Origin: a virus
Taxonomy: Duplodnaviria; Heunggongvirae; Uroviricota; Caudoviricetes
Reading direction: 5' to 3' (one strand)
Length of the DNA: 32,372 nt
Virus record (IMG/VR): IMGVR_UViG_2703718827_000001
Location: 1 to 32,372 of that record
Shown: in pieces, positions 2,681-23,653 of the stretch
How positions within the stretch are numbered: the stretch's first letter is position 1
Layout: the number at the start of each line of letters is the position of its first letter
Translations under genes and position numbers: made by a program
Notes under the pieces: generated by a model
Told to the model about the DNA's origin: nothing
The model's input: the letters and a program-made list of their open reading frames with translations, nothing else
Database searches by the model: none

Positions 2681-5092
2681 TTATGTGATTCGTTGACTGG
2701 TGTTGAAGTTGGTAGCGAGAGCGTTGGACAATTTGCCCTTACCGCTGGCGACATCTCTGACGGCCATGGCGTAGCCCTGCTGCGCACCTCGCTTAACCGC
2801 GGCCTCAAGCATGGCTTGTTGCTGTGCAGAGTAATCACCGTTTAGATGGATAACCGGGCTGAAATTGAACGCCCCGCCACCACCGCCGATATCCCGGTTA
2901 CTGATGACGCGACCGTTATCGCCGGGGATCATGTACTGGCTACCATTGCTGGCTTTGAAAATCTCAGGCTTGCCGCCCTCGCCCACACGGTACATGGAGC
3001 TGGCAGATACCGGGCCGCCGTTTTCGCGCCCGCCGCCATATGAGATGCTCGCAACGTTCGACAGCAATGACGCTCCAGCAGAGGCGATGGCTGCATAGTT
3101 CGCAAGTTTTTGCGCTGGAGTCAGCGCTGTCGGATCAGCCATGGCCTGCATGATTGCGGTATTCAGGCTGAGGGTAGACTGGGCAATCGCAAACGCTTTA
3201 CTGGCTGCGAACATGACCTGGTACGCCGCGTTACTCTTACCAGCAGAGTCTGCAATTATCGACGCCAGGCTATCAAAGCCCTGGGACGCAGAGCCCAGAA
3301 TAGAAAGAACGGATGCTCTTTGCTGATCTGCCTCAGTCTGCGCTATTTGCATCCGTGCGTTTGACGCCTGCAGTTGGATGGCAGTTTTGGCGTCTTCGTA
3401 AAGCTGGGTATTTTGCTTATCCAGTTCCTGATATTTAGCCAGGGCCTCAAGCTTTTGTGTTTCCTGGAGATTGATTTGCGCCAGCGGATCCACTGATGCC
3501 CCAGTGATAGGGTTGACCGAGGTATTTCCGGCGGCTATCTCCTGTTTGGCATACTTCCGCCCCTGCTCAGCCTCTTTGCGCTTCTGAATAGAGATTGCTG
3601 CCTTTTCGTTTGCCTCACCAAGAGCCCTCGCTTCCGCTAGTTGCTGCTGAGTCGCGGCGCTACCAAGAGACTGCTCCGCACGAAGACCCGCCTCTTGAAT
3701 ACGGCGCTTTTCAATCGACTCTGTGGTCAGGTCTGATTGAGCGCGGAGATTAGCCAGTTTCTGAGCAATGGATTCAGCCTGCGATGCGGAAGTTTTGCCC
3801 TCTTTGTTGCTCTCTTTCCGCGCCTCAGTAACCCGATAGGTTTCTGCATATTCATCCTGAAGAGATTTGATGCGTTTCTGATCGGTGATACCAGCGTCTG
3901 TTGCATCATATTGAGCCTGCAGCCTGGCTCTGGCTTCACCTTCAAGCTTGGCTAGCGCCAGGCGGCGCTCTGAGTTTTTTATCAGCTTCGATGTAGCCGC
4001 ATCGTCTCCGGTCGTTTTAATGTTTATTGGCTTTGTATTAGAGGCCTCTTGAGAGGCTTGGGTCACGGCAGAAATATCCCCAACGAGAGCTGCAGCTTTG
4101 TTGCTTAGCCCTGCAAGCGCCTTGCTTTGAGCCTCCCAACCATCCAGTCCCAGCCAAGACCATGTCCTCGCCCTTCGCTCAAACATCTCTGCTGTGCTAT
4201 TGAGATCGGAAATTTGAGCTGCTGCTGAAGCTGTTTTCCCAGTCAGCCTGTCTATGGCTGTGGTGATGGAGTCAATTACAGCCACCATGGTTCTGCTCGC
4301 GCCCGTAGTCTGGTTAATTGAGTCAACCATTGACAGAAACGAATTGGTAAGAGCAGCATTGGCCTGAGATAAGGTGCGGGGCAATTTTGCGAACTCTGCA
4401 TTCACGATGCTGGTTTGCTTCTGAATTGCATTGAGTGCATCTTGAGCAGAAAGCTTCCCATCCAGCATCAACTGACGCAATTCACCAATACCAATGCCAA
4501 GCCCTGCCGCCATCTGCCTTGCCAACTCAGGCATTTGCTCAAGAATAGAGTTAAATTCTTCTGCTCTGACAACACCGGATGAAATAGACTGCCCGAATTG
4601 GCGCAGCGCATTAGCCATTTCCTCGGCAGATGTTCCTCCAATTCGACCAATTTTTTGAAGGGTGTCGGTAAGCTGCAATATTTGGCCATTAGTGGCACCA
4701 GTGCTCCGCAACGCAGTGCTTAACGTTTCCCACAGCTTGGCTGTATCCTGGAGAGATCCTCCTGTTGTTGAGCTTATATTCATCAGACTTTGCATGGTCT
4801 GAGATGCGACAGAAGCACTACCAGTTAGCCTTTCAACTCGAGCGTTAAGTTGGCTCATATTGTCAGCGGCTACAAGAAATGCCTTCCCCCATTCAACGAC
4901 AATTGAAGCAGCGATCGCGCCAGCTACTCTGCTTATGCTGGTCTGAAGCTCATCAAACTTGCTGGCAGCTTTTGATACTCCGCCATTCATCTTCTCAAGC
5001 CGTTCGTTGACTTTTCGCTGGGCCTCAATAAGGTTGGCTACATCCATCTGTACTTGATAGACGATATTTCCTACCTGTTCCTCACTGGCCAT
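2681..5092 (-). CDS. Tail tape measure protein
   Basis: About 800 aa, Ala/Gln/Leu-rich helical composition typical of tape measure proteins, downstream of the major tail protein. ORF extends to 5107, but the first ATG directly abuts a terminator T-tract; the second ATG (MASEEQ..., 5090..5092) has a GGAG Shine-Dalgarno 5 nt upstream. Confidence 0.85.
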   Translation of the reverse strand: MASEEQVGNIVYQVQMDVANLIEAQRKVNERLEKMNGGVSKAASKFDELQTSISRVAGAIAASIVVEWGKAFLVAADNMSQLNARVERLTGSASVASQTMQSLMNISSTTGGSLQDTAKLWETLSTALRSTGATNGQILQLTDTLQKIGRIGGTSAEEMANALRQFGQSISSGVVRAEEFNSILEQMPELARQMAAGLGIGIGELRQLMLDGKLSAQDALNAIQKQTSIVNAEFAKLPRTLSQANAALTNSFLSMVDSINQTTGASRTMVAVIDSITTAIDRLTGKTASAAAQISDLNSTAEMFERRARTWSWLGLDGWEAQSKALAGLSNKAAALVGDISAVTQASQEASNTKPINIKTTGDDAATSKLIKNSERRLALAKLEGEARARLQAQYDATDAGITDQKRIKSLQDEYAETYRVTEARKESNKEGKTSASQAESIAQKLANLRAQSDLTTESIEKRRIQEAGLRAEQSLGSAATQQQLAEARALGEANEKAAISIQKRKEAEQGRKYAKQEIAAGNTSVNPITGASVDPLAQINLQETQKLEALAKYQELDKQNTQLYEDAKTAIQLQASNARMQIAQTEADQQRASVLSILGSASQGFDSLASIIADSAGKSNAAYQVMFAASKAFAIAQSTLSLNTAIMQAMADPTALTPAQKLANYAAIASAGASLLSNVASISYGGGRENGGPVSASSMYRVGEGGKPEIFKASNGSQYMIPGDNGRVISNRDIGGGGGAFNFSPVIHLNGDYSAQQQAMLEAAVKRGAQQGYAMAVRDVASGKGKLSNALATNFNTSQRIT

Positions 5093-5107
5093 ATTTTCTC
5101 CGGGCAT

Positions 5108-5129
5108 AAAAAAACCCGCCGAAGCGGGT
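5108..5129 (-). terminator. Rho-independent terminator after the lipoprotein moron, immediately upstream of the tape measure start
   Basis: Minus-strand hairpin ACCCGC-TTCG-GCGGGT (6 bp GC-rich stem, tetraloop) followed by TTTTTTT. Confidence 0.7.
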
Positions 5130-5146
5130 TAGGATTCACGGTTTAG

Positions 5147-5533
5147 TCACTTGGTGCAGAACTTATAATCACGCCCACAGAGCGCTATGGATTTTTTTCC
5201 ATCCTCTGACCAGGCCTCTATGGACTGGACATAAACAGCATTCGTCTCTGCATCGATCTGGAACGAAACAAGCCCACCGCTGTAATCTAAAATCTTCCCA
5301 TTTCCCTTAATCGCCTTAAAGGTCGCCGACGCATTATAGGTGTTATCGCTTTTCCGCTCTGAAACCTTGGCCCTCCCCCCTTCAACAGAGAAACATCTTG
5401 CGCTCTTATCCCCACACAGAGCCATCGACATTTCTTTCTTCGCAAGCTGGAAGGCTTCATCTTCTGTGGGAGCTGGTTTACCACAACCAGCCAATAAGAG
5501 CCCTGCAATGGTGACGATTATTAAGCGTTTCAT
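5147..5533 (-). CDS. Lipoprotein (moron); candidate superinfection-exclusion lipoprotein
   Basis: 128 aa; N-terminal signal peptide with lipobox LLAGC; AAGGA Shine-Dalgarno 3-4 nt upstream; followed by its own terminator; region looks AT-richer than flanking tail genes. Confidence 0.7.
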   Translation of the reverse strand: MKRLIIVTIAGLLLAGCGKPAPTEDEAFQLAKKEMSMALCGDKSARCFSVEGGRAKVSERKSDNTYNASATFKAIKGNGKILDYSGGLVSFQIDAETNAVYVQSIEAWSEDGKKSIALCGRDYKFCTK

Positions 5534-14217: not shown

Positions 14218-14571
14218 ATGAAAAAAATTGCAATGGCTATCGGGGTTGGTGCGCTGATAATTTCTTTCGACTCAATGGCTGATTACTACGGTGGTAATGA
14301 TATTGCCAAATGGAGCGACTCCAGACTTAAAGCCAAGGCTGGAACCGCTGATAACATGGACTATGTTAACGTTGCAACTTTACGAGGCCTTGTTATTGGT
14401 GTTCATGATGCTTTCGAAGGGTCTTCAATCTGCTCGCCTCAGGGAGCAACAAATGGGCAAATAGTCGATACGGTTACTTTATACGTATCAAACCATCCGG
14501 AGAAGCGTACCGATAATGCATCTCTGTTGGCTTATGAGGCATTATCCAACGCCTACCCGTGTAAAAAATAG
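14218..14571 (+). CDS. Secreted small protein (moron) on the opposite strand inside the head module
   Basis: 117 aa; N-terminal signal peptide (MKKIAMAIGVGALIISFDSMA); strong AAAGGAG Shine-Dalgarno; two Cys residues; AT-rich; its stop abuts the stop of the convergent minus-strand gene with no gap. Confidence 0.6.
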   Translation: MKKIAMAIGVGALIISFDSMADYYGGNDIAKWSDSRLKAKAGTADNMDYVNVATLRGLVIGVHDAFEGSSICSPQGATNGQIVDTVTLYVSNHPEKRTDNASLLAYEALSNAYPCKK

Positions 14572-16983: not shown

Positions 16984-18456
16984 TTAGAAGAATACTGCGC
17001 CGACCTGTTTGTGGTTGTTCTTCGCTACGGCAAAGTAGCGGAAACTGTCAGCGCCGTGTGATGTGAAGTCATGAAGCGGCTTATCTTTCCAGCAGCCGCG
17101 CTTGTCGTCCCACTCCTTGCGGTAGCCCTCGAGGTGAGATATGCCCTCGGCACACTTCTCCTCATCGAATACACAGGACGGGAGGATTTCGCGCACCGAC
17201 TCAATGCCGGTGTCTATTCCCACTTTCGGAACCACCTGAAACGTCATGCTGTAAACCTGCCCGTCGATTTCATACCCTTCACGGGCAAGTTCTCTGCGGG
17301 ATTTGGCGTCAGCACCGAATTCACGGTTATCGATGTCGTGCGGACCCCAATGCTCGCCGTACTCGTAGCCGCGGTCTTTCAGCACCTTCATGTAGTGCCT
17401 CAGGCCTTCGCCGGAGTTTTCGTAGTAGTCGATGATGTGGAACTCTTCGCCAACCTCACGAACGAACCAGATCGCCGTTGAGTCACCCACACCGATATCC
17501 CAGAACGTGTGTACCGGGAGGTGCGAGTTATCAGGGATTTGGCCGATCCGCTTGTTGGTATAGAGCCAGCGGAATTGTTTGGCGTAGTACGCGCCCTCGA
17601 CCGACTGCTGGAACGCCTCGGCCGGAATGGTCGGGTATTCGCGCTTCATGTCATCGCCGAGCGTTTTCTCTTTGGCGTAGTACCAGGCTTTCTGGCGCTC
17701 ATTGACGACTACGCCGTGCTTAGCCTCCATCTCGGCGAAGTACTCAAGCAGGCGCGCCGGCAGAGACTCGACCGGGTCGATTGCGTAGTGTGGATTCTTC
17801 CACCAGGAGAAGAAGAAAAACTTCCAGTCCAGCGCGGATAAAGGCTTACCCTGAAGCAGTGCTTTCTCTGCCGTCTGGCAGTAATCGAAGAAGTAACCCG
17901 CCCGGCCCTCTGCCGTGCTCTCGATAGTAGCGAAGCATCCAGTAGATACCGCCTCAAACGCACCAGTGACGATTTCACGGGCTTTGTCAGGATACTTGGC
18001 GCATATCTTCCCGAACTCTGAAACGTGCAGGTAACGCAGCGTACCGCCACGAAACGACGTGCTGACGTATAGCGAGCCGCCCTTCTTAAAGACGAGCTCA
18101 CCAGACGAATCATTGCTCGCCGGGTTGGCCGCCTTTATCTCTGCCGGAAGCTTGTCATAAGCGTACTTCACCTTTTCGCGGAACAGGCGCTTTGCGTCAT
18201 TCAGCGTGTGGGCAATCAGCGCGCACTTTGCCGACTCAAACAGGGCCGCGTCGAGCTGGATGATGCACACCTCTGTGGTGAACCCGAGCTGGCGAGCTTT
18301 CAGGATGATGTTGCGTGTGTGGATCCCTTCGAAGTATTCCCGCTGCTCAGGCGTCATCCTGAACCGCGTAGGCTTTCCCTCTTTGTCGGTGATCCAGTAA
18401 AGATTGTTCAGCCGCCAGTCTTTGTCGGACAGCAGCTTCAGATGCTCAGGTTTCAT
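16984..18456 (-). CDS. terL: Terminase large subunit
   Basis: 490 aa; N-terminal ATPase region with Walker-A-like ARQLGFTT, C-terminal nuclease-type region with acidic motifs (FWDIGVGDSTAIW, HDID); follows the small subunit gene with a 1 nt overlap. Confidence 0.85.
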   Translation of the reverse strand: MKPEHLKLLSDKDWRLNNLYWITDKEGKPTRFRMTPEQREYFEGIHTRNIILKARQLGFTTEVCIIQLDAALFESAKCALIAHTLNDAKRLFREKVKYAYDKLPAEIKAANPASNDSSGELVFKKGGSLYVSTSFRGGTLRYLHVSEFGKICAKYPDKAREIVTGAFEAVSTGCFATIESTAEGRAGYFFDYCQTAEKALLQGKPLSALDWKFFFFSWWKNPHYAIDPVESLPARLLEYFAEMEAKHGVVVNERQKAWYYAKEKTLGDDMKREYPTIPAEAFQQSVEGAYYAKQFRWLYTNKRIGQIPDNSHLPVHTFWDIGVGDSTAIWFVREVGEEFHIIDYYENSGEGLRHYMKVLKDRGYEYGEHWGPHDIDNREFGADAKSRRELAREGYEIDGQVYSMTFQVVPKVGIDTGIESVREILPSCVFDEEKCAEGISHLEGYRKEWDDKRGCWKDKPLHDFTSHGADSFRYFAVAKNNHKQVGAVFF

Positions 18457-18971
18457 TACGCCCCCTGAGACAGTGAATCCATCAGGTCTGAAATCGAATC
18501 AACTACGTGCTCAGTTTTTACCTGCTCACGGAATGCCTGGACGTCGATATGCTTACCAATCAGTTCGAGGTTCTTAACCTTATCAGGCCACTTAATCTTC
18601 TTGAGCAGTGCGGCGGTGTTTCCCTCGGCTGACATCTCGACGACATCCAGCCCGGATAATGTCGTCCTCCAGACCTTCGGCCACTGAGACACCGGCTTCA
18701 ACTCTCCGGTCGAGGTCAGGATATCCAGCACGTCCATCTGGTCAATCTCAACGAGACGATTCAGGACGTATGTCGCATTTATACCAACCAGATCATTGCG
18801 TTGCGATTTAAGTTCGGCAATTCTGGACTGGATGTCAGGTTTTGACAGGTTTTCGGACGCGGTGCGGTTAGCTGTCTTTGCGCTGTACCCCGCCCGAATA
18901 GCCGCTTGCGTGGCGTTTAAATCGATGAGGTACTCGCGACAGAACATTTCTTGCTTGTCGGTGAGTGCCAT
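18456..18971 (-). CDS. terS: Terminase small subunit
   Basis: 171 aa; N-terminus MALTDKQEMFCREYLIDLNATQAAIRAGYS matches the conserved Terminase_2-type small-subunit HTH. Confidence 0.8.
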   Translation of the reverse strand: MALTDKQEMFCREYLIDLNATQAAIRAGYSAKTANRTASENLSKPDIQSRIAELKSQRNDLVGINATYVLNRLVEIDQMDVLDILTSTGELKPVSQWPKVWRTTLSGLDVVEMSAEGNTAALLKKIKWPDKVKNLELIGKHIDVQAFREQVKTEHVVDSISDLMDSLSQGA

Positions 18972-18998
18972 GTTTATTCCAAGTTAAAAGGAGTTTAT

Positions 18999-19334
18999 AT
19001 GTCTACAGAATCACTTCTTGATGCGATGCTAAAACATGATCGTTTTCATAATCAAAATGCGATGGTTCCAGGAATAGCCCAAAGAGCAGTTGATAATGGG
19101 TACGACAGCCTAACCGCAAAGCAACAGGCTGTTTTAGACCCTTTCTTAACCGAGAAATGTGATGGAGTAACCAACCCTGGAGGACATCATAACGACTGCC
19201 AAGTCATCCTTGAGGGTGACGATCTCGAAAGTGCTATTGAAAATGAAATGTATTATGGAGGGCTGCTATGCCCTTCATGCGTCGACGAGAAGGAGCATTA
19301 CAAGGCTGAATGGGAAAGAATTCAGCGCGAGTAA
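18999..19334 (+). CDS. Cys-rich small protein (moron), divergent from terS
   Basis: Start at the ATG preceded by AAAAGGAG (strong Shine-Dalgarno); 111 aa with CDG...HHNDC...CPSC motifs suggesting metal binding; plus strand, opposite to the backbone. Confidence 0.5.
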   Translation: MSTESLLDAMLKHDRFHNQNAMVPGIAQRAVDNGYDSLTAKQQAVLDPFLTEKCDGVTNPGGHHNDCQVILEGDDLESAIENEMYYGGLLCPSCVDEKEHYKAEWERIQRE

Positions 19335-19393
19335 TTCATAACCATTTTTATATTTGGCGGCCTGACCTATCAGCGTGGTCGCCTCTGTTTCGG

Positions 19394-19609
19394 CTAATCT
19401 GCCATCTCGTTTAACAGTTCGGTCTGCTCTTCCGGTACTGGCGTGAACTCCACGCGCTTTACATCGGCAGGAGCGAAATATAGCCATTGGCCCGTTTCTG
19501 TCGCCAGCGGCACAAAACCGTTAACCAGCTCAGGCTGACATCGAGGCATCTTGCCCGTAACGGCCTGTCTTGCCTGGCTGGTGGGAGTGATTTGATAGAT
19601 AGAGGTCAT
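19394..19609 (-). CDS. Hypothetical protein (71 aa)
   Basis: ORF on the backbone strand between the lysis cassette and terminase; no recognisable motif. Confidence 0.35.
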   Translation of the reverse strand: MTSIYQITPTSQARQAVTGKMPRCQPELVNGFVPLATETGQWLYFAPADVKRVEFTPVPEEQTELLNEMAD

Positions 19610-19672
19610 ATCAGAGACTCATAATTGTGTGTTTAAATGTTTTTCAAAAATACATTCAGATAAGGAAAAGAG

Positions 19673-20254
19673 ATGAATCCTGTAATTTTTATGAAAATCT
19701 TCGGTGAGGTGGATATCTCAAAGTTTTTTATTTCCATTGACCAAAATGAAGATGAACTTGGCTCGGTTTTAAGAGTTCATCTTTTGTCTGAGCGGCTACT
19801 TGATGCATGGATAGCGGCCCATATAAATAAAGAAGATTTGTTTCAAAATTCACCGGGCGAGAAAATAAAGTTCAATCCGAGCTATGGGATGAAACTTGGA
19901 CTCGCAAAGAAGTTAGGAATGCACGCTGAGTTATGTTCTTGCCTGCAAACTATTAACAAAATAAGAAATAACTTTGCTCATCGCTATGATTGCGAACCCC
20001 TAACAGATAAAGACATGCAAGCGATGGAAAATGCACTCAAAGGCGCTCCTCTACCTGCGAAAGTCAGAGCCGTCAGTGAAATTGATTTCAAGATTATTGA
20101 TATCACTGGTAAGGAAATTAAAAGCTACCATTTCAATGATGAAGAAACGCCAAATCGAATCCGCCTGCTTATTATTTTCGCCAGCATAATGGCAAGAATC
20201 ATCACTGTGGTAGTGGATAAACTTAAGACAATTGACCCCTTAGTCTTCAAATAA
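19673..20254 (+). CDS. HEPN-motif protein (candidate abortive-infection / RNase-type defence moron)
   Basis: 193 aa; R-x4-H motif (IRNNFAHRYD, R98 to H103) in a predicted helical context, matching the HEPN Rx4-6H signature; AAGGA RBS; AT-rich; transcribed opposite to the flanking late genes. Confidence 0.55.
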   Translation: MNPVIFMKIFGEVDISKFFISIDQNEDELGSVLRVHLLSERLLDAWIAAHINKEDLFQNSPGEKIKFNPSYGMKLGLAKKLGMHAELCSCLQTINKIRNNFAHRYDCEPLTDKDMQAMENALKGAPLPAKVRAVSEIDFKIIDITGKEIKSYHFNDEETPNRIRLLIIFASIMARIITVVVDKLKTIDPLVFK

Positions 20255-20319
20255 CAATCTGGGATATAAACCCCAGACTTTCTATGCTTAAAGTCCAGAA
20301 GAGAGACTGTGCCAGAACC

Positions 20320-20547
20320 TCAGGGATGAGGTTCTATTCTGGCGCAGTTCGCCTGCACCGATTTGTTGTGCGCCAGCACGTCTTTCTTCGTCTGGCGATC
20401 CATCACTTCGATGTCGTGCTCAGTGAGGCGGATGACGTTTACCCAGTCACAGCCGGTGTCGATGACCTCAATCTTTGCGGGTCCAGTTTGCGCGCAGCTC
20501 GCGATCAACATCGTCATCAGGCATATGGCTAACTGTCTGCTGAACAT
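20320..20547 (-). CDS. o-spanin (Rz1-like outer-membrane lipoprotein)
   Basis: 75 aa; signal peptide with lipobox LIASC; starts inside the 3' end of the i-spanin gene in another frame (overlapped spanin architecture). Confidence 0.6.
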   Translation of the reverse strand: MFSRQLAICLMTMLIASCAQTGPAKIEVIDTGCDWVNVIRLTEHDIEVMDRQTKKDVLAHNKSVQANCARIEPHP

Positions 20548-20740
20548 TGCTGGCCTCCTTGGTTACTTCAACGCGGCGTTCTGCAGCTGCTTTGGTGGCT
20601 GCTGCGTTATCGTCGGTTCGCTGCTTATCGGCTTTGTCTTCTGCCCTCTCCCGTCCACGCATGCTGCCCAGGCCAAAAGCGCCCAGCACCACCAGCACAA
20701 CAGTGACGATAAACGCCAGGATGGCTTTCAGTTTGGTCAT
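20468..20740 (-). CDS. i-spanin (Rz-like)
   Basis: 90 aa; N-terminal transmembrane segment (ILAFIVTVVLVVLGAFGLG) followed by a charged periplasmic region; directly downstream of the endolysin. Confidence 0.6.
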   Translation of the reverse strand: MTKLKAILAFIVTVVLVVLGAFGLGSMRGRERAEDKADKQRTDDNAAATKAAAERRVEVTKEASNVQQTVSHMPDDDVDRELRANWTRKD

Positions 20741-21279
20741 AGGCTCACGCGCTCCCGGATCCAGCCATACACGAATGACTCGTTTTGCTGGCGCTGCTCT
20801 GCCAGTTCGAGATAACGCTGCCCTTGGCTGCAGTTAAGCGAGCGAAGCAATACGGTCTCCCCTTCACTACCACGCTTCGCCAGGTAAGACTTCAGCGCGC
20901 TGATGCTGCGCGGGCCAATCTGGCCGTCGGCGATCAGGTCGGGATAGAACTGCTGCTGGTTGTTGAATACGTTCAGCCAGCGCTGGAACCACTTCACCTG
21001 TACCGATGGCCCCATGTTCACGCCGGTGTCGCAGAGTTCAGCGGCAATTGCAGGGGATAAAGACGCCACCTGGTCGAAGCGTGGGCCATACCAGTAATCA
21101 GCCTCGAGGATTTCCAGAGCCTGCTCGCGGGTCAGGTCTCGCATGTCACCGCTATAACCATGGGCGCGGGCCGTTGCCTGAGTAATCCCCCAGTTCGTCG
21201 GGCCGCCTTTATCGTTCGGGTGATTAACGTAACCTCCCTCTTTTCCGAGGATGGCATTGAAGATGTCGTCTTTGGTCAT
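20737..21279 (-). CDS. Endolysin, glycoside hydrolase family 108-type with C-terminal peptidoglycan-binding region
   Basis: Start at MTKDD (ATG overlapping the upstream holin stop as ATGA); motif ILGKEGGYVNHPNDKGGPTNWGIT is characteristic of GH108 lysozymes. Confidence 0.75.
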   Translation of the reverse strand: MTKDDIFNAILGKEGGYVNHPNDKGGPTNWGITQATARAHGYSGDMRDLTREQALEILEADYWYGPRFDQVASLSPAIAAELCDTGVNMGPSVQVKWFQRWLNVFNNQQQFYPDLIADGQIGPRSISALKSYLAKRGSEGETVLLRSLNCSQGQRYLELAEQRQQNESFVYGWIRERVSL

Positions 21280-21557
21280 TGCCCGGCCTTCTGGAATACT
21301 TTGGCGAGATTGCCACGGGAGCGCCACACCGCAACGCATATGGCGACGTTCAGCATCAGCTCTCCCGGATCCACCTGCAGGTATTTGCCATAGAGAATGC
21401 GGAATGAGGTGAATCCGGCGGCCAGAATCATCAGGTACGCCATCCACGCAACAGCCGGACGGTGTCGCTTCCCACTCTTACTGAAGAACATCAGCCGGAC
21501 GGCGATAAGCGCGCAGATAATGGCGTTTACATCAAGAACGATGGCTTGCCATGTCAT
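21276..21557 (-). CDS. Holin-like membrane protein (holin or antiholin)
   Basis: 93 aa with two or three hydrophobic helices; immediately upstream of the endolysin with 4 nt overlaps on both sides. Confidence 0.6.
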   Translation of the reverse strand: MTWQAIVLDVNAIICALIAVRLMFFSKSGKRHRPAVAWMAYLMILAAGFTSFRILYGKYLQVDPGELMLNVAICVAVWRSRGNLAKVFQKAGQ

Positions 21558-21952
21558 TTACCTTCCTCCTCCAGTCCCGGCATTTTCCCCCGTTTTGATT
21601 TGGCGAGGATGCGTAACAGGACTGCGACAGAGATGGAAGCGGAAACCAGCGCGCCAATATTCGGGGATACTTCGATGCTGACCGGCGGCTGCAACAGGCC
21701 AAGGGCGGTGTTAATCACCCCGGCCAGTATCTTCGCCATTGGCACCGAGAAGAACACCCCGCCGACAAAGCTGATGACGGCGAACAGGAATTGCTTCCAC
21801 AGTTGGTGTGGATCGGATGTCAGAACGTACATTGCTGCGCCAGCCAGCGCGCACAGCATTACGCCGGGCGTTGCCTCGGGGAACAGAGATGCGAACGTCA
21901 CTCCGATTGTTGCGGACGTTACACCGCCAGCAATGGTTAGAGGTTCAGACAT
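21554..21952 (-). CDS. Holin
   Basis: 132 aa, multiple transmembrane helices, charged C-terminus (KSKRGKMPGLEEEGK); first gene of the lysis cassette. Confidence 0.6.
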   Translation of the reverse strand: MSEPLTIAGGVTSATIGVTFASLFPEATPGVMLCALAGAAMYVLTSDPHQLWKQFLFAVISFVGGVFFSVPMAKILAGVINTALGLLQPPVSIEVSPNIGALVSASISVAVLLRILAKSKRGKMPGLEEEGK

Positions 21953-22027
21953 AGGTGGTCCATGTGTAGAGAAGGCCGTCAGACACGAGGGCTACGTGGC
22001 ATCTGAGGGTGATTGTCTGCGGCCTGA

Positions 22028-22053
22028 ATAAAAAAGGCGGGTTCTGGTCCGCC
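22028..22053 (-). terminator. Intrinsic terminator in the late leader region
   Basis: Minus-strand hairpin GGCGG-ACCAGAAC-CCGCC followed by TTTTTTATT. Confidence 0.5.
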
Positions 22054-22115
22054 AAGATGAGGGTCTTACTTGAGCCGTAGCTCTTATGGTCCCAGGTAGG
22101 GGTATTCCAGATACG

Positions 22116-22150
22116 AAAAAGCCCAAGGCGTTAACCTCGGGCTCTTTTGT
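22116..22150. terminator. Bidirectional intrinsic terminator (tR'-like) between the Q-position gene and the lysis genes
   Basis: 9 bp stem with one mismatch (AGCCCAAGG/CCTCGGGCT), 6 nt loop; followed by T-runs on both strands. Confidence 0.5.
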
Positions 22151-22212
22151 GTAATTCAGTCGACAACCAAAGCTATGGCGACGATATCAGATTTACGCTA
22201 AATGTATGCTAT

Positions 22213-22902
22213 TTAATTGACTTTTGCAACACCCTGCTGCGAAAAAGCTGCTTTTTGTTGTGATCGTGTTCTCACTGCTCGCAGTAAAGCATCACTATCA
22301 AGTCGCTCAAATATGGCACACATGGCATTCCAGTAGTCGGCGTAGTTATGGCTCCAGTTATCCGGTTTCACCCCGCATAGCTCAGCAAGTTCCTGCTTCT
22401 GGTATGTTTCCCGCCCGGCCAGCTCAGCTTTAACATCCTGCGCCGCCAGCCAGATTAACGCCTTCAGCCTGTCCATGGTCTTGCCGGCCACCTTCCGGGT
22501 TCCCAGTTGCTCCCTGAACTGGGCCCATGCCCACTGAGTGATCGCCACCTGGTACTCGAAGCGGATATTCTCGCTGTAGTTCCACAGTAGCCATGCCTTC
22601 TGATGGTCTTCCAGCGACAGGACAGCGCGGCGCCAGGATGCGGTCACGAACTCAACCGGCCCCACCAGTGCGATGGATGATCCCTTTGCGCGGGACTGGC
22701 TGCCGCTCATCGCCGGGCCGTCCCGGTTAACTTTACGGCCGGTGATCGGGTCGGTGATTTTCTTCCTCCCCCGGCTGCGCGCCGTCGCGGTGAATTGTGC
22801 GTTCTCAGCGAAAGCTACCAGTTGCCCTTTCGTCTCCCCACTCAAATCTGCAGTCGCCACAATGAGCTGCTGACGTACGTATTCCAGTTGCTGACTGTTC
22901 AT
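22213..22902 (-). CDS. Putative late-gene antiterminator (Q-position protein)
   Basis: 229 aa ORF located between the nin-like genes and the terminator-containing leader upstream of the lysis cassette; call is positional, family not confirmed. Confidence 0.4.
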   Translation of the reverse strand: MNSQQLEYVRQQLIVATADLSGETKGQLVAFAENAQFTATARSRGRKKITDPITGRKVNRDGPAMSGSQSRAKGSSIALVGPVEFVTASWRRAVLSLEDHQKAWLLWNYSENIRFEYQVAITQWAWAQFREQLGTRKVAGKTMDRLKALIWLAAQDVKAELAGRETYQKQELAELCGVKPDNWSHNYADYWNAMCAIFERLDSDALLRAVRTRSQQKAAFSQQGVAKVN

Positions 22903-23011
22903 GCGGCTTCCTTATGTGACTGGTTGGTTTTGGTCTGGCTGTGCTTTGCTACTGGCGGCAGGCTGGCACGCTTAACGCTTTCTGCCTGGTACCGGAGGAA
23001 ATCGGCGTGGT

Positions 23012-23653
23012 TCATGCTGACTCCTTCTGCTTTGGTCCGCGATATTCACCATACAGAGGTGTTCTTCCTCTTGGCCTGGTATGCCTGTGGGTTACCTTGG
23101 GAGAAAAAAGCGCATCCTCTACATTCATTCCATTTTTTAGTCGACGCTTAATGGATGTTTCTGATACTGAAACGCGAGGGTCCCTTGACCATTCTGTGGC
23201 GGTTTTCGTTTCGCCATTGAAAGTTATGGCTGTGCGTCCTTTTTTTGTGTGCTCAGGGATATGCACTCGAGATCGCATGACATTACACGCTCGGCAAAGC
23301 ACCCTAAGATTTGAGTCCGCATTGTTATCTACAACCTCATCAATGTGATCAATATGCGCGGTTTTCCATGCGACCTTCTTGCCGCATTTTTCGCATGGTG
23401 GAAGTGTTTCTCCATAGCGGTCGTAAACAACTTTTCGGTGCTCATAAACGCAACCATTCGCCATTGATAGTGGGTGATCAGGAATTTTGAGCATTTGATA
23501 TCCCTTCGCATTTTTATGCCTGAATTTCCCTTTACCGTTTTTTGTGAGTTCGTAGGTCCCGTAGCGCATCATTCGGAAGTAGTGCATTTGACAGATACCC
23601 TTTCCTGGGTAGTGTTTGCATTCACGCTCACAACCTTCAACTTTGCATTTCAT
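23012..23653 (-). CDS. HNH endonuclease with N-terminal zinc finger and C-terminal AP2-like DNA-binding region
   Basis: 213 aa; Cys cluster at the N-terminus; HNH core (HIDHIDEVVDNNADSNLRVLCRACN); C-terminal TAITFNGETKTATEWSRDPRVSVSETSIKRRLKNGM resembles AP2-type domains. Confidence 0.75.
   Translation of the reverse strand: MKCKVEGCERECKHYPGKGICQMHYFRMMRYGTYELTKNGKGKFRHKNAKGYQMLKIPDHPLSMANGCVYEHRKVVYDRYGETLPPCEKCGKKVAWKTAHIDHIDEVVDNNADSNLRVLCRACNVMRSRVHIPEHTKKGRTAITFNGETKTATEWSRDPRVSVSETSIKRRLKNGMNVEDALFSPKVTHRHTRPRGRTPLYGEYRGPKQKESA

Follow-up and report, generated by a model that had tools for sequence, protein, structure and literature searches.

A small acidic Cys4 protein encoded in an exchangeable prophage cargo slot beside terS: an accessory gene and candidate phage-conflict gene

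The stretch of DNA analysed here, hereafter the window, comprises 32,372 nucleotides (positions 1 to 32,372 of the IMG/VR record IMGVR_UViG_2703718827_000001, a virus of the Caudoviricetes). The gene of interest encodes a protein of 111 amino acids and is divergent from terS (Table 1). The program-made list of open reading frames lets it begin earlier, at a TTG at 18951, but the methionine of MST... is the start in all homologues, and the RefSeq start (WP_022651103.1) is identical; the stop codon is TAA at 19332-19334. The initial annotation had claimed a strong ribosome-binding site and a distance of 27 bp to the terS start on the other strand. Both descriptions proved accurate, the Shine-Dalgarno motif standing 5 nt upstream of the ATG and exactly 27 nt separating the two start codons. 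A purine-rich motif (AAGGAG-type or GAGG/AAGG) is found at the equivalent position in relatives of the gene. The window is co-linear with a prophage of Escherichia coli GN25 over 401-22000 (>90% identity in 200-nt windows) and matches it at 100% over 18900-20300. In that prophage the same reading frame, with the identical start, is annotated as the hypothetical protein WP_022651103.1.

Table 1. Features at the locus and alternative cargo genes in the equivalent slot of other prophages. Positions refer to the window unless a locus (L) is named.
Feature	Position	Strand	Basis or remark
terS (Terminase_2), first gene of the packaging module, divergent neighbour	18456..18971	-	Pfam PF03592, 3e-40; annotated terminase small subunit
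First 105 nt of terS, near-invariant DNA block, left flank of the cargo slot	18867..18971	-	Nucleotide identity
Spacer between the divergent start codons of the 111-aa gene and terS, 27 bp	18972..18998	.	Holds the RBS regions of both genes
Shine-Dalgarno AAAAGGAG	18986..18993	+	5-nt gap, then ATG at 18999
CDS, 111-aa acidic Cys4 protein (WP_022651103.1; PHROG 12178)	18999..19334	+	Stop codon included
Codon of C54, proposed zinc ligand 1	19158..19160	+	Invariant, 51/51 sequences
Codon of C67, proposed zinc ligand 2	19197..19199	+	50/51 sequences
C91-P-S-C94 (CxxC), proposed zinc ligands 3 and 4, N-terminus of last helix	19269..19280	+	Both 51/51 sequences
71-aa ORF (PHROG 6581, function unknown), late-operon orientation, convergent with the 111-aa gene, usual right flank	19394..19609	-	ORF list and PHROG
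193-aa HEPN gene, RNNFAH	19673..20254	+	Distant HepS homologue (PDB 9oij, E = 2.6e-6, aligned through RNxxAH)
Alternative cargo, DUF2441 protein, 171 aa	L086/L087 3093-3608	+	Strand in locus orientation
Alternative cargo, 146-aa hypothetical protein	L088/L089 2595-3035	+	Strand in locus orientation
Alternative cargo, 143/144-aa family	L090 2593-3024, L099 2593-3027	+	Strand in locus orientation

The 111-aa reading frame is a real gene under selection. Comparison with relatives gave dN/dS values of 0.06-0.25, indicating purifying selection, and in the deeper pairs, where synonymous sites are saturated, the proteins are still 70-77% identical. The protein matches PHROG 12178, a family of unknown function, over its full length (E = 3.8e-51, residues 1-111 aligned with all 111 positions of the profile). 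Among 5.8 billion proteins, a word-indexed search returned 18 clusters of 111-113 aa, and an exhaustive profile search of 1.84 billion cluster representatives returned 63 clusters at 50% identity (E <= 1e-3), so the family is small. Nearly all of the 63 clusters are stand-alone proteins of 100-120 aa, and in none is the protein fused to another domain. Homologues of this size occur in Enterobacterales, Pseudomonas, Halomonas, Shewanella and other genera; those with 40-56% identity come from Pseudomonas, Halomonas/Vreelandella, Marinobacter, Shewanella, Aeromonas and other genera. Homologues are also carried by 36 plasmids, 32 of them conjugative. Searches of the literature by accession numbers and by the PHROG identifier found no mention of the family.

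Related loci were gathered by a profile search built on a 19-sequence family alignment. They include approximately 55 enterobacterial prophage loci (Enterobacter, Cronobacter, Citrobacter, Pantoea, Atlantibacter, Morganella and E. coli; 60-100% protein identity), in which the gene starts 25-28 bp, mostly 27 bp, from the start of a Terminase_2 terS on the opposite strand. The length of the spacer is thus kept across loci while its sequence varies (mean pairwise identity 78%, minimum 41%). The first ~105 nt of terS behave differently from the remainder of that gene, with a mean pairwise nucleotide identity across loci of 93-95% as compared with 66-81%, and this block stays with the 111-aa gene even where other parts of terS have been lost. 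It is present in 207 complete E. coli genomes and persists in P22 as a 70-nt non-coding remnant (AB362338.2, 40681-40750). The block looks like a mosaic joint or a recombination flank, and it is possibly an expression signal shared by whatever occupies the slot. A truncated or non-coding remnant likewise survives in lambda-like prophages of Morganella, and remnants were also seen at L026 and L043; the loci at which the block was noted include L009-L012.

Juxtaposition with terS does not amount to partnership. The gene is present in only 2 of 5,426 complete E. coli genomes, against 207 that have the same terS 5' end. It follows that 2 of these 207 prophages carry it, and in others different cargo fills the slot, which is the distribution of a moron and upholds the early view that the gene is not a backbone function. 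The 111-aa gene and terS do not co-vary in identity across loci: a 100% identical gene was found with an 80% identical terS and a 75% identical gene with a 98% identical terS. Independent assortment of this kind speaks against a specific interaction of the 111-aa protein with the terS of its own prophage. Moreover, an intact copy of the gene is found at loci where only 13-78 codons of terS are left or the terS start codon is gone (L026, L043 and the Morganella prophages), and the Morganella prophages with a terS remnant package their DNA by a lambda-type Nu1/GpA terminase. The 111-aa gene and terS are not a functional pair.

In other prophages that we inspected, the same slot, 20-27 bp from the terS ATG and on the opposite strand, holds unrelated genes (Table 1), whose distance from that ATG is 20-22 bp at the loci of the table. 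These encode a DUF2441 protein, a 146-aa hypothetical protein and a 143/144-aa family, and the 144-aa protein of Cronobacter phage ES2 is a distant relative of the 143-aa E. coli cargo protein. None of the alternative cargo proteins matched TaiEcA, and the DUF2441 protein, the sole one scanned against PADLOC, matched no model. Since different reverse-oriented genes are found at one position, the site is an exchangeable cargo slot. On the right flank, the 71-aa ORF is kept in many but not all loci and is replaced by other ORFs elsewhere, and is thus not a strict partner; beside the DUF2441 cargo it is a pseudogene. It has no similarity to AtiEcA of phi80.

The conservation of the protein is concentrated in few residues. 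In an alignment of 51 family sequences the invariant or near-invariant positions are C54, C67, C91, C94, L38, A27, G34, Q42 and G56; apart from glycine, alanine and leucine, conservation is thus limited to the cysteines and Q42. The cysteine spacing of the family is C-x4-13-C-x19-25-C-x2-C. Cys/His motifs had been noted at the outset as suggestive of a small metal-binding domain. The motifs C54-D-G, H63-H64-N-D-C67 and C91-P-S-C94 are all present, and the Cys4 set is family-wide (50-51 of 51), but the histidines of HHNDC are not conserved, so that the metal-binding part of the proposal stands on the cysteines. A metal site is plausible because the four cysteines are invariant, and their pattern indicates a putative structural zinc site of the Cys4 type. 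Consistent with a treble-clef-like arrangement, the CxxC pair is placed at the N-terminus of a helix whose predicted start is residue 92.

AlphaFold2 predicted one compact domain with helices at 3-12, 22-33, 40-49, 73-81, 83-86 and 92-110 and strands at 51-53 and 70-72. When 19 sequences were supplied, the best model reached a pLDDT of 94 and two of the five models were poor; with 51 sequences all five reached 96.4-97.0 with the same secondary structure, and the last helix spans residues 92-110 in both predictions. Foldseek searches of the model found no match at E <= 0.001 in the PDB, nor among the viral models of BFVD; the modelled fold thus appears to be without a known relative in these two collections. 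The sequence matched nothing in Pfam or NCBIfam and no family of PADLOC-DB 2.0 at E <= 1. A Pfam scan of the 51 family members gave nothing consistent, only scattered sub-threshold matches to zinc fingers.

Two kinds of zinc-binding domain deserve comment. As in treble-clef and LIM-type Cys4 fingers, the protein has four invariant cysteines and a CxxC at a helix N-terminus, and a weak LIM-like signal over C67-C94, the only one to come from sequence and profile searches of the PDB, was seen with a profile (LMO4, E = 0.03), and another with Pfam LIM in two of the 51 members (0.008). However, a LIM domain has two zinc sites, whereas the 111-aa protein has a single Cys4 set in which the first ligand pair is 4-13 residues apart and is not a knuckle. 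All of the LIM signals are below threshold and there is no structural match, and we rejected an assignment as a LIM domain. The terminase-associated HNH endonucleases, of which HK97 gp74 is an example, resemble the gene in being small and beside terS, and the window protein has cysteine pairs and an "HH-N" in common with them. In the family, however, H63 is present in 15, H64 in 31 and N65 in 25 of the 51 sequences. That the four cysteines are family-wide and the histidine pair is not argues against an HNH nuclease, which we also rejected; no Pfam HNH match was obtained in the 51 members and no significant match to a solved structure. The 111-aa gene differs from HK97 gp74, further, in being encoded on the strand opposite to terS and in persisting without a functional terS.

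The protein has a pI of 4.6 and a net charge of -12 (family medians 4.64 and -9), and no hydrophobic segment, signal peptide or membrane segment was found in it. Surface residues are poorly conserved across the family while the overall negative charge is kept. By these features the protein is predicted to be soluble, acidic and cytoplasmic. The acidity and the lack of a hydrophobic segment argue against a DNA-binding regulator and a membrane exclusion protein, and fit a soluble binder.

Signals for expression were sought around the gene. No sigma-70 consensus promoter was found on the plus strand between 18400 and 18999, i.e. within 600 bp upstream, and inspection of the conserved terS block by eye gave no convincing -35/-10 pair. 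At all loci the 111-aa gene is preceded by ~57 bp or more of the 5' end of terS, and this retained end may hold an expression signal. Downstream, a hairpin at ~19356-19381 was not better than shuffled sequences (z = -1.05), and an Rfam scan of 17000-23500 gave nothing near the gene. The timing of expression is something we infer, by analogy with phi80.

Previous work on phi80 provides the closest architectural precedent. There, taiEcA occupies the interval that separates the lysis genes from the packaging module and runs opposite to the Q-dependent late operon; lysogens express it, and its level falls upon expression of Q (PMC11364771). According to the same report, Tai (tail-assembly-inhibition) defence genes are mostly found upstream of the packaging module, in a slot that is a hot spot for morons and immunity genes (PMC11364771). 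We checked the taiEcA layout on the phi80 sequence. The 111-aa gene shares with the noncontiguous taiEcA/atiEcA operon a place flanked by lysis cassette and packaging module, transcription counter to the Q-dependent late operon and small late-oriented ORFs as neighbours; its location, upstream of the packaging module, is thus of the Tai type. TaiEcA is a protein of 204 aa, whereas the 111-aa protein is about half that size and has predicted zinc ligands. Pairwise BLASTP found no similarity of the 111-aa protein to TaiEcA (no alignment at all), to phi80 orf65 or to AtiEcA. The likeness is therefore one of architecture only.

The next reverse-oriented gene of the window is itself related to a known defence gene. 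HepS is a solo HEPN abortive-infection protein of Gifsy-1, an anticodon nuclease that works alone and has no conserved partner (PMC13043305). Its distant homologue in the window probably serves defence on its own, from a second cargo slot of reverse orientation. The 111-aa gene is, like HepS, a prophage accessory gene, but HepS is akin to the neighbour and not to the 111-aa protein, which has neither a HEPN motif nor a nuclease signature. Among the ~55 enterobacterial prophage loci, the HEPN gene of the window is found beside the 111-aa gene in the matching prophage of GN25 alone, and one more of these loci has a HEPN-motif gene unrelated to it. Taking all homologues together, a HEPN-type gene lies 300-380 bp downstream on the same strand in 3 of ~45 distinct contexts: the window (193 aa, RNNFAH), L026 (190 aa, RNIIAH) and IncX1 plasmids (AbiD/Abi_2). 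No mutual relation of the three HEPN proteins could be detected. This is not the consistent co-occurrence of a two-gene system, and the 111-aa gene and the HEPN gene are best read as two cargo slots side by side.

The L026 protein (4635-5207, plus strand), with R-N-I-I-A-H at residue 100, occupies the place of the HepS-like gene of the window. It is unrelated by BLAST and phmmer both to that gene and to HepS, and may be another solo HEPN variant.

More distant phage homologues tend to sit in or beside the packaging module, again on the opposite strand. One lies upstream of a different terS family (L058), two directly upstream of terL (L060 and L062; in L060 a Terminase_2 terS was confirmed on the other side, placing the homologue between terS and terL), and one between terL and portal (L063). 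Others adjoin an integrase, a P2-type replication gene, a Dam methylase or an endolysin-like gene. Outside phages, genes of immunity surround the homologues. In Pseudomonas frederiksbergensis (L066, 1636-6765) a GmrSD type IV restriction enzyme lies upstream of the homologue and a dCTP-deaminase defence gene downstream (PADLOC, E = 8e-178). BovA adjoins the homologue in L070, a GmrSD-type gene in L085 and PDC-S49 in L067. On IncX1 plasmids AbiD/Abi_2 is found 379 bp downstream and a NACHT protein is encoded in the same accessory region, far from the relaxase, and on a Shewanella plasmid a dCMP-deaminase-family gene is divergent from the homologue. The neighbourhoods of homologues are thus defence-rich. 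A recurrent partner family is absent, no Pfam family being found more than twice among 104 neighbours at 31 loci. Some caution is due here, since closeness to immune genes is what would be seen for defence, for counter-defence and for hitch-hiking on mobile elements alike. The L066 region itself has the appearance of a compact defence islet with several small unannotated ORFs.

Taken together, our results show the 111-aa gene to be a real accessory (moron) gene and make it a candidate phage-conflict gene, rather than a regulator or a packaging factor. The reading that we prefer, tentatively and at somewhat less than an even chance, is that of a stand-alone, non-enzymatic phage-host conflict protein which the lysogen would produce and convergent late transcription would dampen. 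In this lambdoid prophage the gene would be a self-contained moron; it lies in the cargo slot immediately before the packaging module and is transcribed against the Q-dependent late operon. Its product would be a soluble and strongly acidic single domain, consisting of an N-terminal three-helix part, a beta-hairpin and further helices, with one structural Cys4 zinc site. As a prophage- or plasmid-borne exclusion or defence factor it would act without catalysis, by stoichiometric binding and blocking of another macromolecule, and it would be turned down after induction by convergent late transcription, as is taiEcA in phi80. We favor a conflict protein because of the phi80 precedent, the defence-rich neighbourhoods, the lack of a partner and of a catalytic signature, and the acidic fold with its predicted zinc staple. 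What we infer in this proposal is when the gene is expressed, how its product binds and whether it serves defence or counter-defence. Against the preferred reading count the lack of a consensus promoter and of a convincing terminator and the lack of a PADLOC match. Small size, acidity and a missing catalytic domain are, besides, features that counter-defence inhibitors show at least as typically as defence genes do.

First among the alternatives is an inhibitor serving counter-defence, the main rival, which the size and charge of the protein suit equally well. This would be an acidic, possibly DNA-mimicking antagonist of a host or rival nuclease or immune protein, expressed from its own promoter at DNA entry and shared by phages and plasmids in the manner of Ocr of T7 and the plasmid protein ArdA. 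With these the 111-aa protein has in common its small size, a strong negative charge that is kept despite poor conservation of the surface, the lack of a catalytic motif and an occurrence both in temperate phages and on conjugative plasmids; its gene also has as neighbours nucleases and further immune genes, which an inhibitor of this kind could neutralise or regulate. It differs from them in its predicted zinc site and in lying outside an early or leading region wherever this could be checked. The gene is not in the early operon of the prophage, the IncX1 copy is in the AbiD/NACHT accessory region, far from the relaxase/oriT end, and an antisense position in the late operon would lower expression late in infection. 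Nor was any likeness of fold or sequence found to a solved structure, any deposited structures of Ocr, ArdA or KlcA included, and we consider the inhibitor unlikely, if well worth keeping in mind. Less likely again is a factor of lysogenic conversion or host physiology that plays no part in phage conflict and might, for example, modulate a host protein in a zinc-dependent manner. The bor gene of lambda is a reverse-oriented moron between Rz and cos that encodes an outer-membrane lipoprotein. The 111-aa gene presumably belongs to the same class of position and orientation, being non-essential, placed in the lysis/packaging interval against the late operon and found in some relatives only, and mobile elements of many genera carry homologues. 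Its product, however, differs from Bor in being a predicted acidic protein of the cytoplasm that lacks both a signal peptide and a membrane segment. The neighbourhoods are enriched in defence genes, and among the neighbour Pfam families listed none is of virulence or metabolism.

The remaining alternatives, two of them raised by the initial annotation, fare worse. It had been suggested that the gene may encode a lysogen-expressed regulator. Expression in the lysogen survives as an idea for which taiEcA is the precedent (PMC11364771), but a DNA-binding transcription regulator is very improbable. The conserved G-I-A...G-Y..L-S..Q-K..L segment forms two predicted helices that could resemble a helix-turn-helix. 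Against this, a recognisable DNA-binding domain and a basic surface, as expected of such a regulator, are both lacking: the family is consistently acidic, none of the 51 members matched an HTH or other DNA-binding family, the model had no structural match, and there is no conserved operator-like repeat, the sequence of the 27-bp spacer being variable. An accessory partnership with the nearby HEPN gene, the 111-aa protein serving as immunity protein, sensor or regulator, had likewise been suggested. The three HEPN-type genes at a similar distance on the same strand would fit it, but they encode proteins that are not detectably related, the other contexts among the ~45 have no HEPN neighbour, an opposite-strand 71-aa gene separates the two genes in the window, and HepS suffices alone (PMC13043305). 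As a general rule we rejected the partnership, given its rarity and the unrelatedness of the HEPN proteins, and hold it to be highly improbable. Finally, the constant juxtaposition with terS in enterobacterial prophages, the positions of distant homologues near terS, terL and portal (L058, L060, L062 and L063) and the HH-N-x-C and CxxC pattern of the window protein could point to an accessory of packaging such as an HNH-type terminase helper. Yet the gene is always on the strand opposite to the packaging genes, is kept in prophages that retain only a dead piece of terS and package in the lambda manner, is missing from 205 of the 207 E. coli prophages that share this terS 5' end, and is also found on plasmids and in chromosomal defence islands; the histidines vary, and no HNH family or fold was matched. 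The initial annotation had named identification as a common structural or packaging accessory protein as grounds for abandoning its view; no such identification emerged, and the packaging helper is largely refuted and exceedingly improbable.

Reverse-oriented prophage cargo upstream of the packaging module is known already, and the 111-aa gene is a further instance of it. A more far-reaching version of the preferred conflict reading makes the family a new conflict module that consists of one gene and needs no enzyme activity, its acidic, zinc-stapled fold being without precedent. Carried by prophages, conjugative plasmids and defence islands, it would block a protein of incoming phages or rival immune systems or mimic their DNA substrate, and in prophages its place within or beside the packaging operon would let antisense late transcription switch it off automatically; this we consider rather unlikely, although within reach. 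If a conflict role is true, the genes of immunity and counter-immunity would gain a family of very small proteins that are non-catalytic, stabilised by zinc and new in fold. The tai paradigm of phi80, reverse-oriented cargo upstream of the packaging module that late transcription silences, would then take in another gene family, unrelated to the first, as well as a defined slot of exchangeable cargo beside Terminase_2 terS. The gene is only 336 bp long and its product apparently acts alone, which makes the hypothesis cheap to test; should no phenotype be found, the gene stays one more conserved orphan moron.

Two further features of the window were observed. At 14218-14571 on the plus strand, a gene is oriented against the late operon inside the head module; RefSeq names it a Rap1a/Tai family immunity protein in the matching GN25 prophage, and its product has a signal-peptide-like sequence at the N-terminus. 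At 22118-22197 on the minus strand, between the Q antiterminator gene and the holin genes, Rfam reports a match to isrJ (41 bits, gathering score 37, E = 4e-5). In the GN25 prophage, from which the window diverges near 22000, a tRNA-Arg is annotated at the equivalent place.
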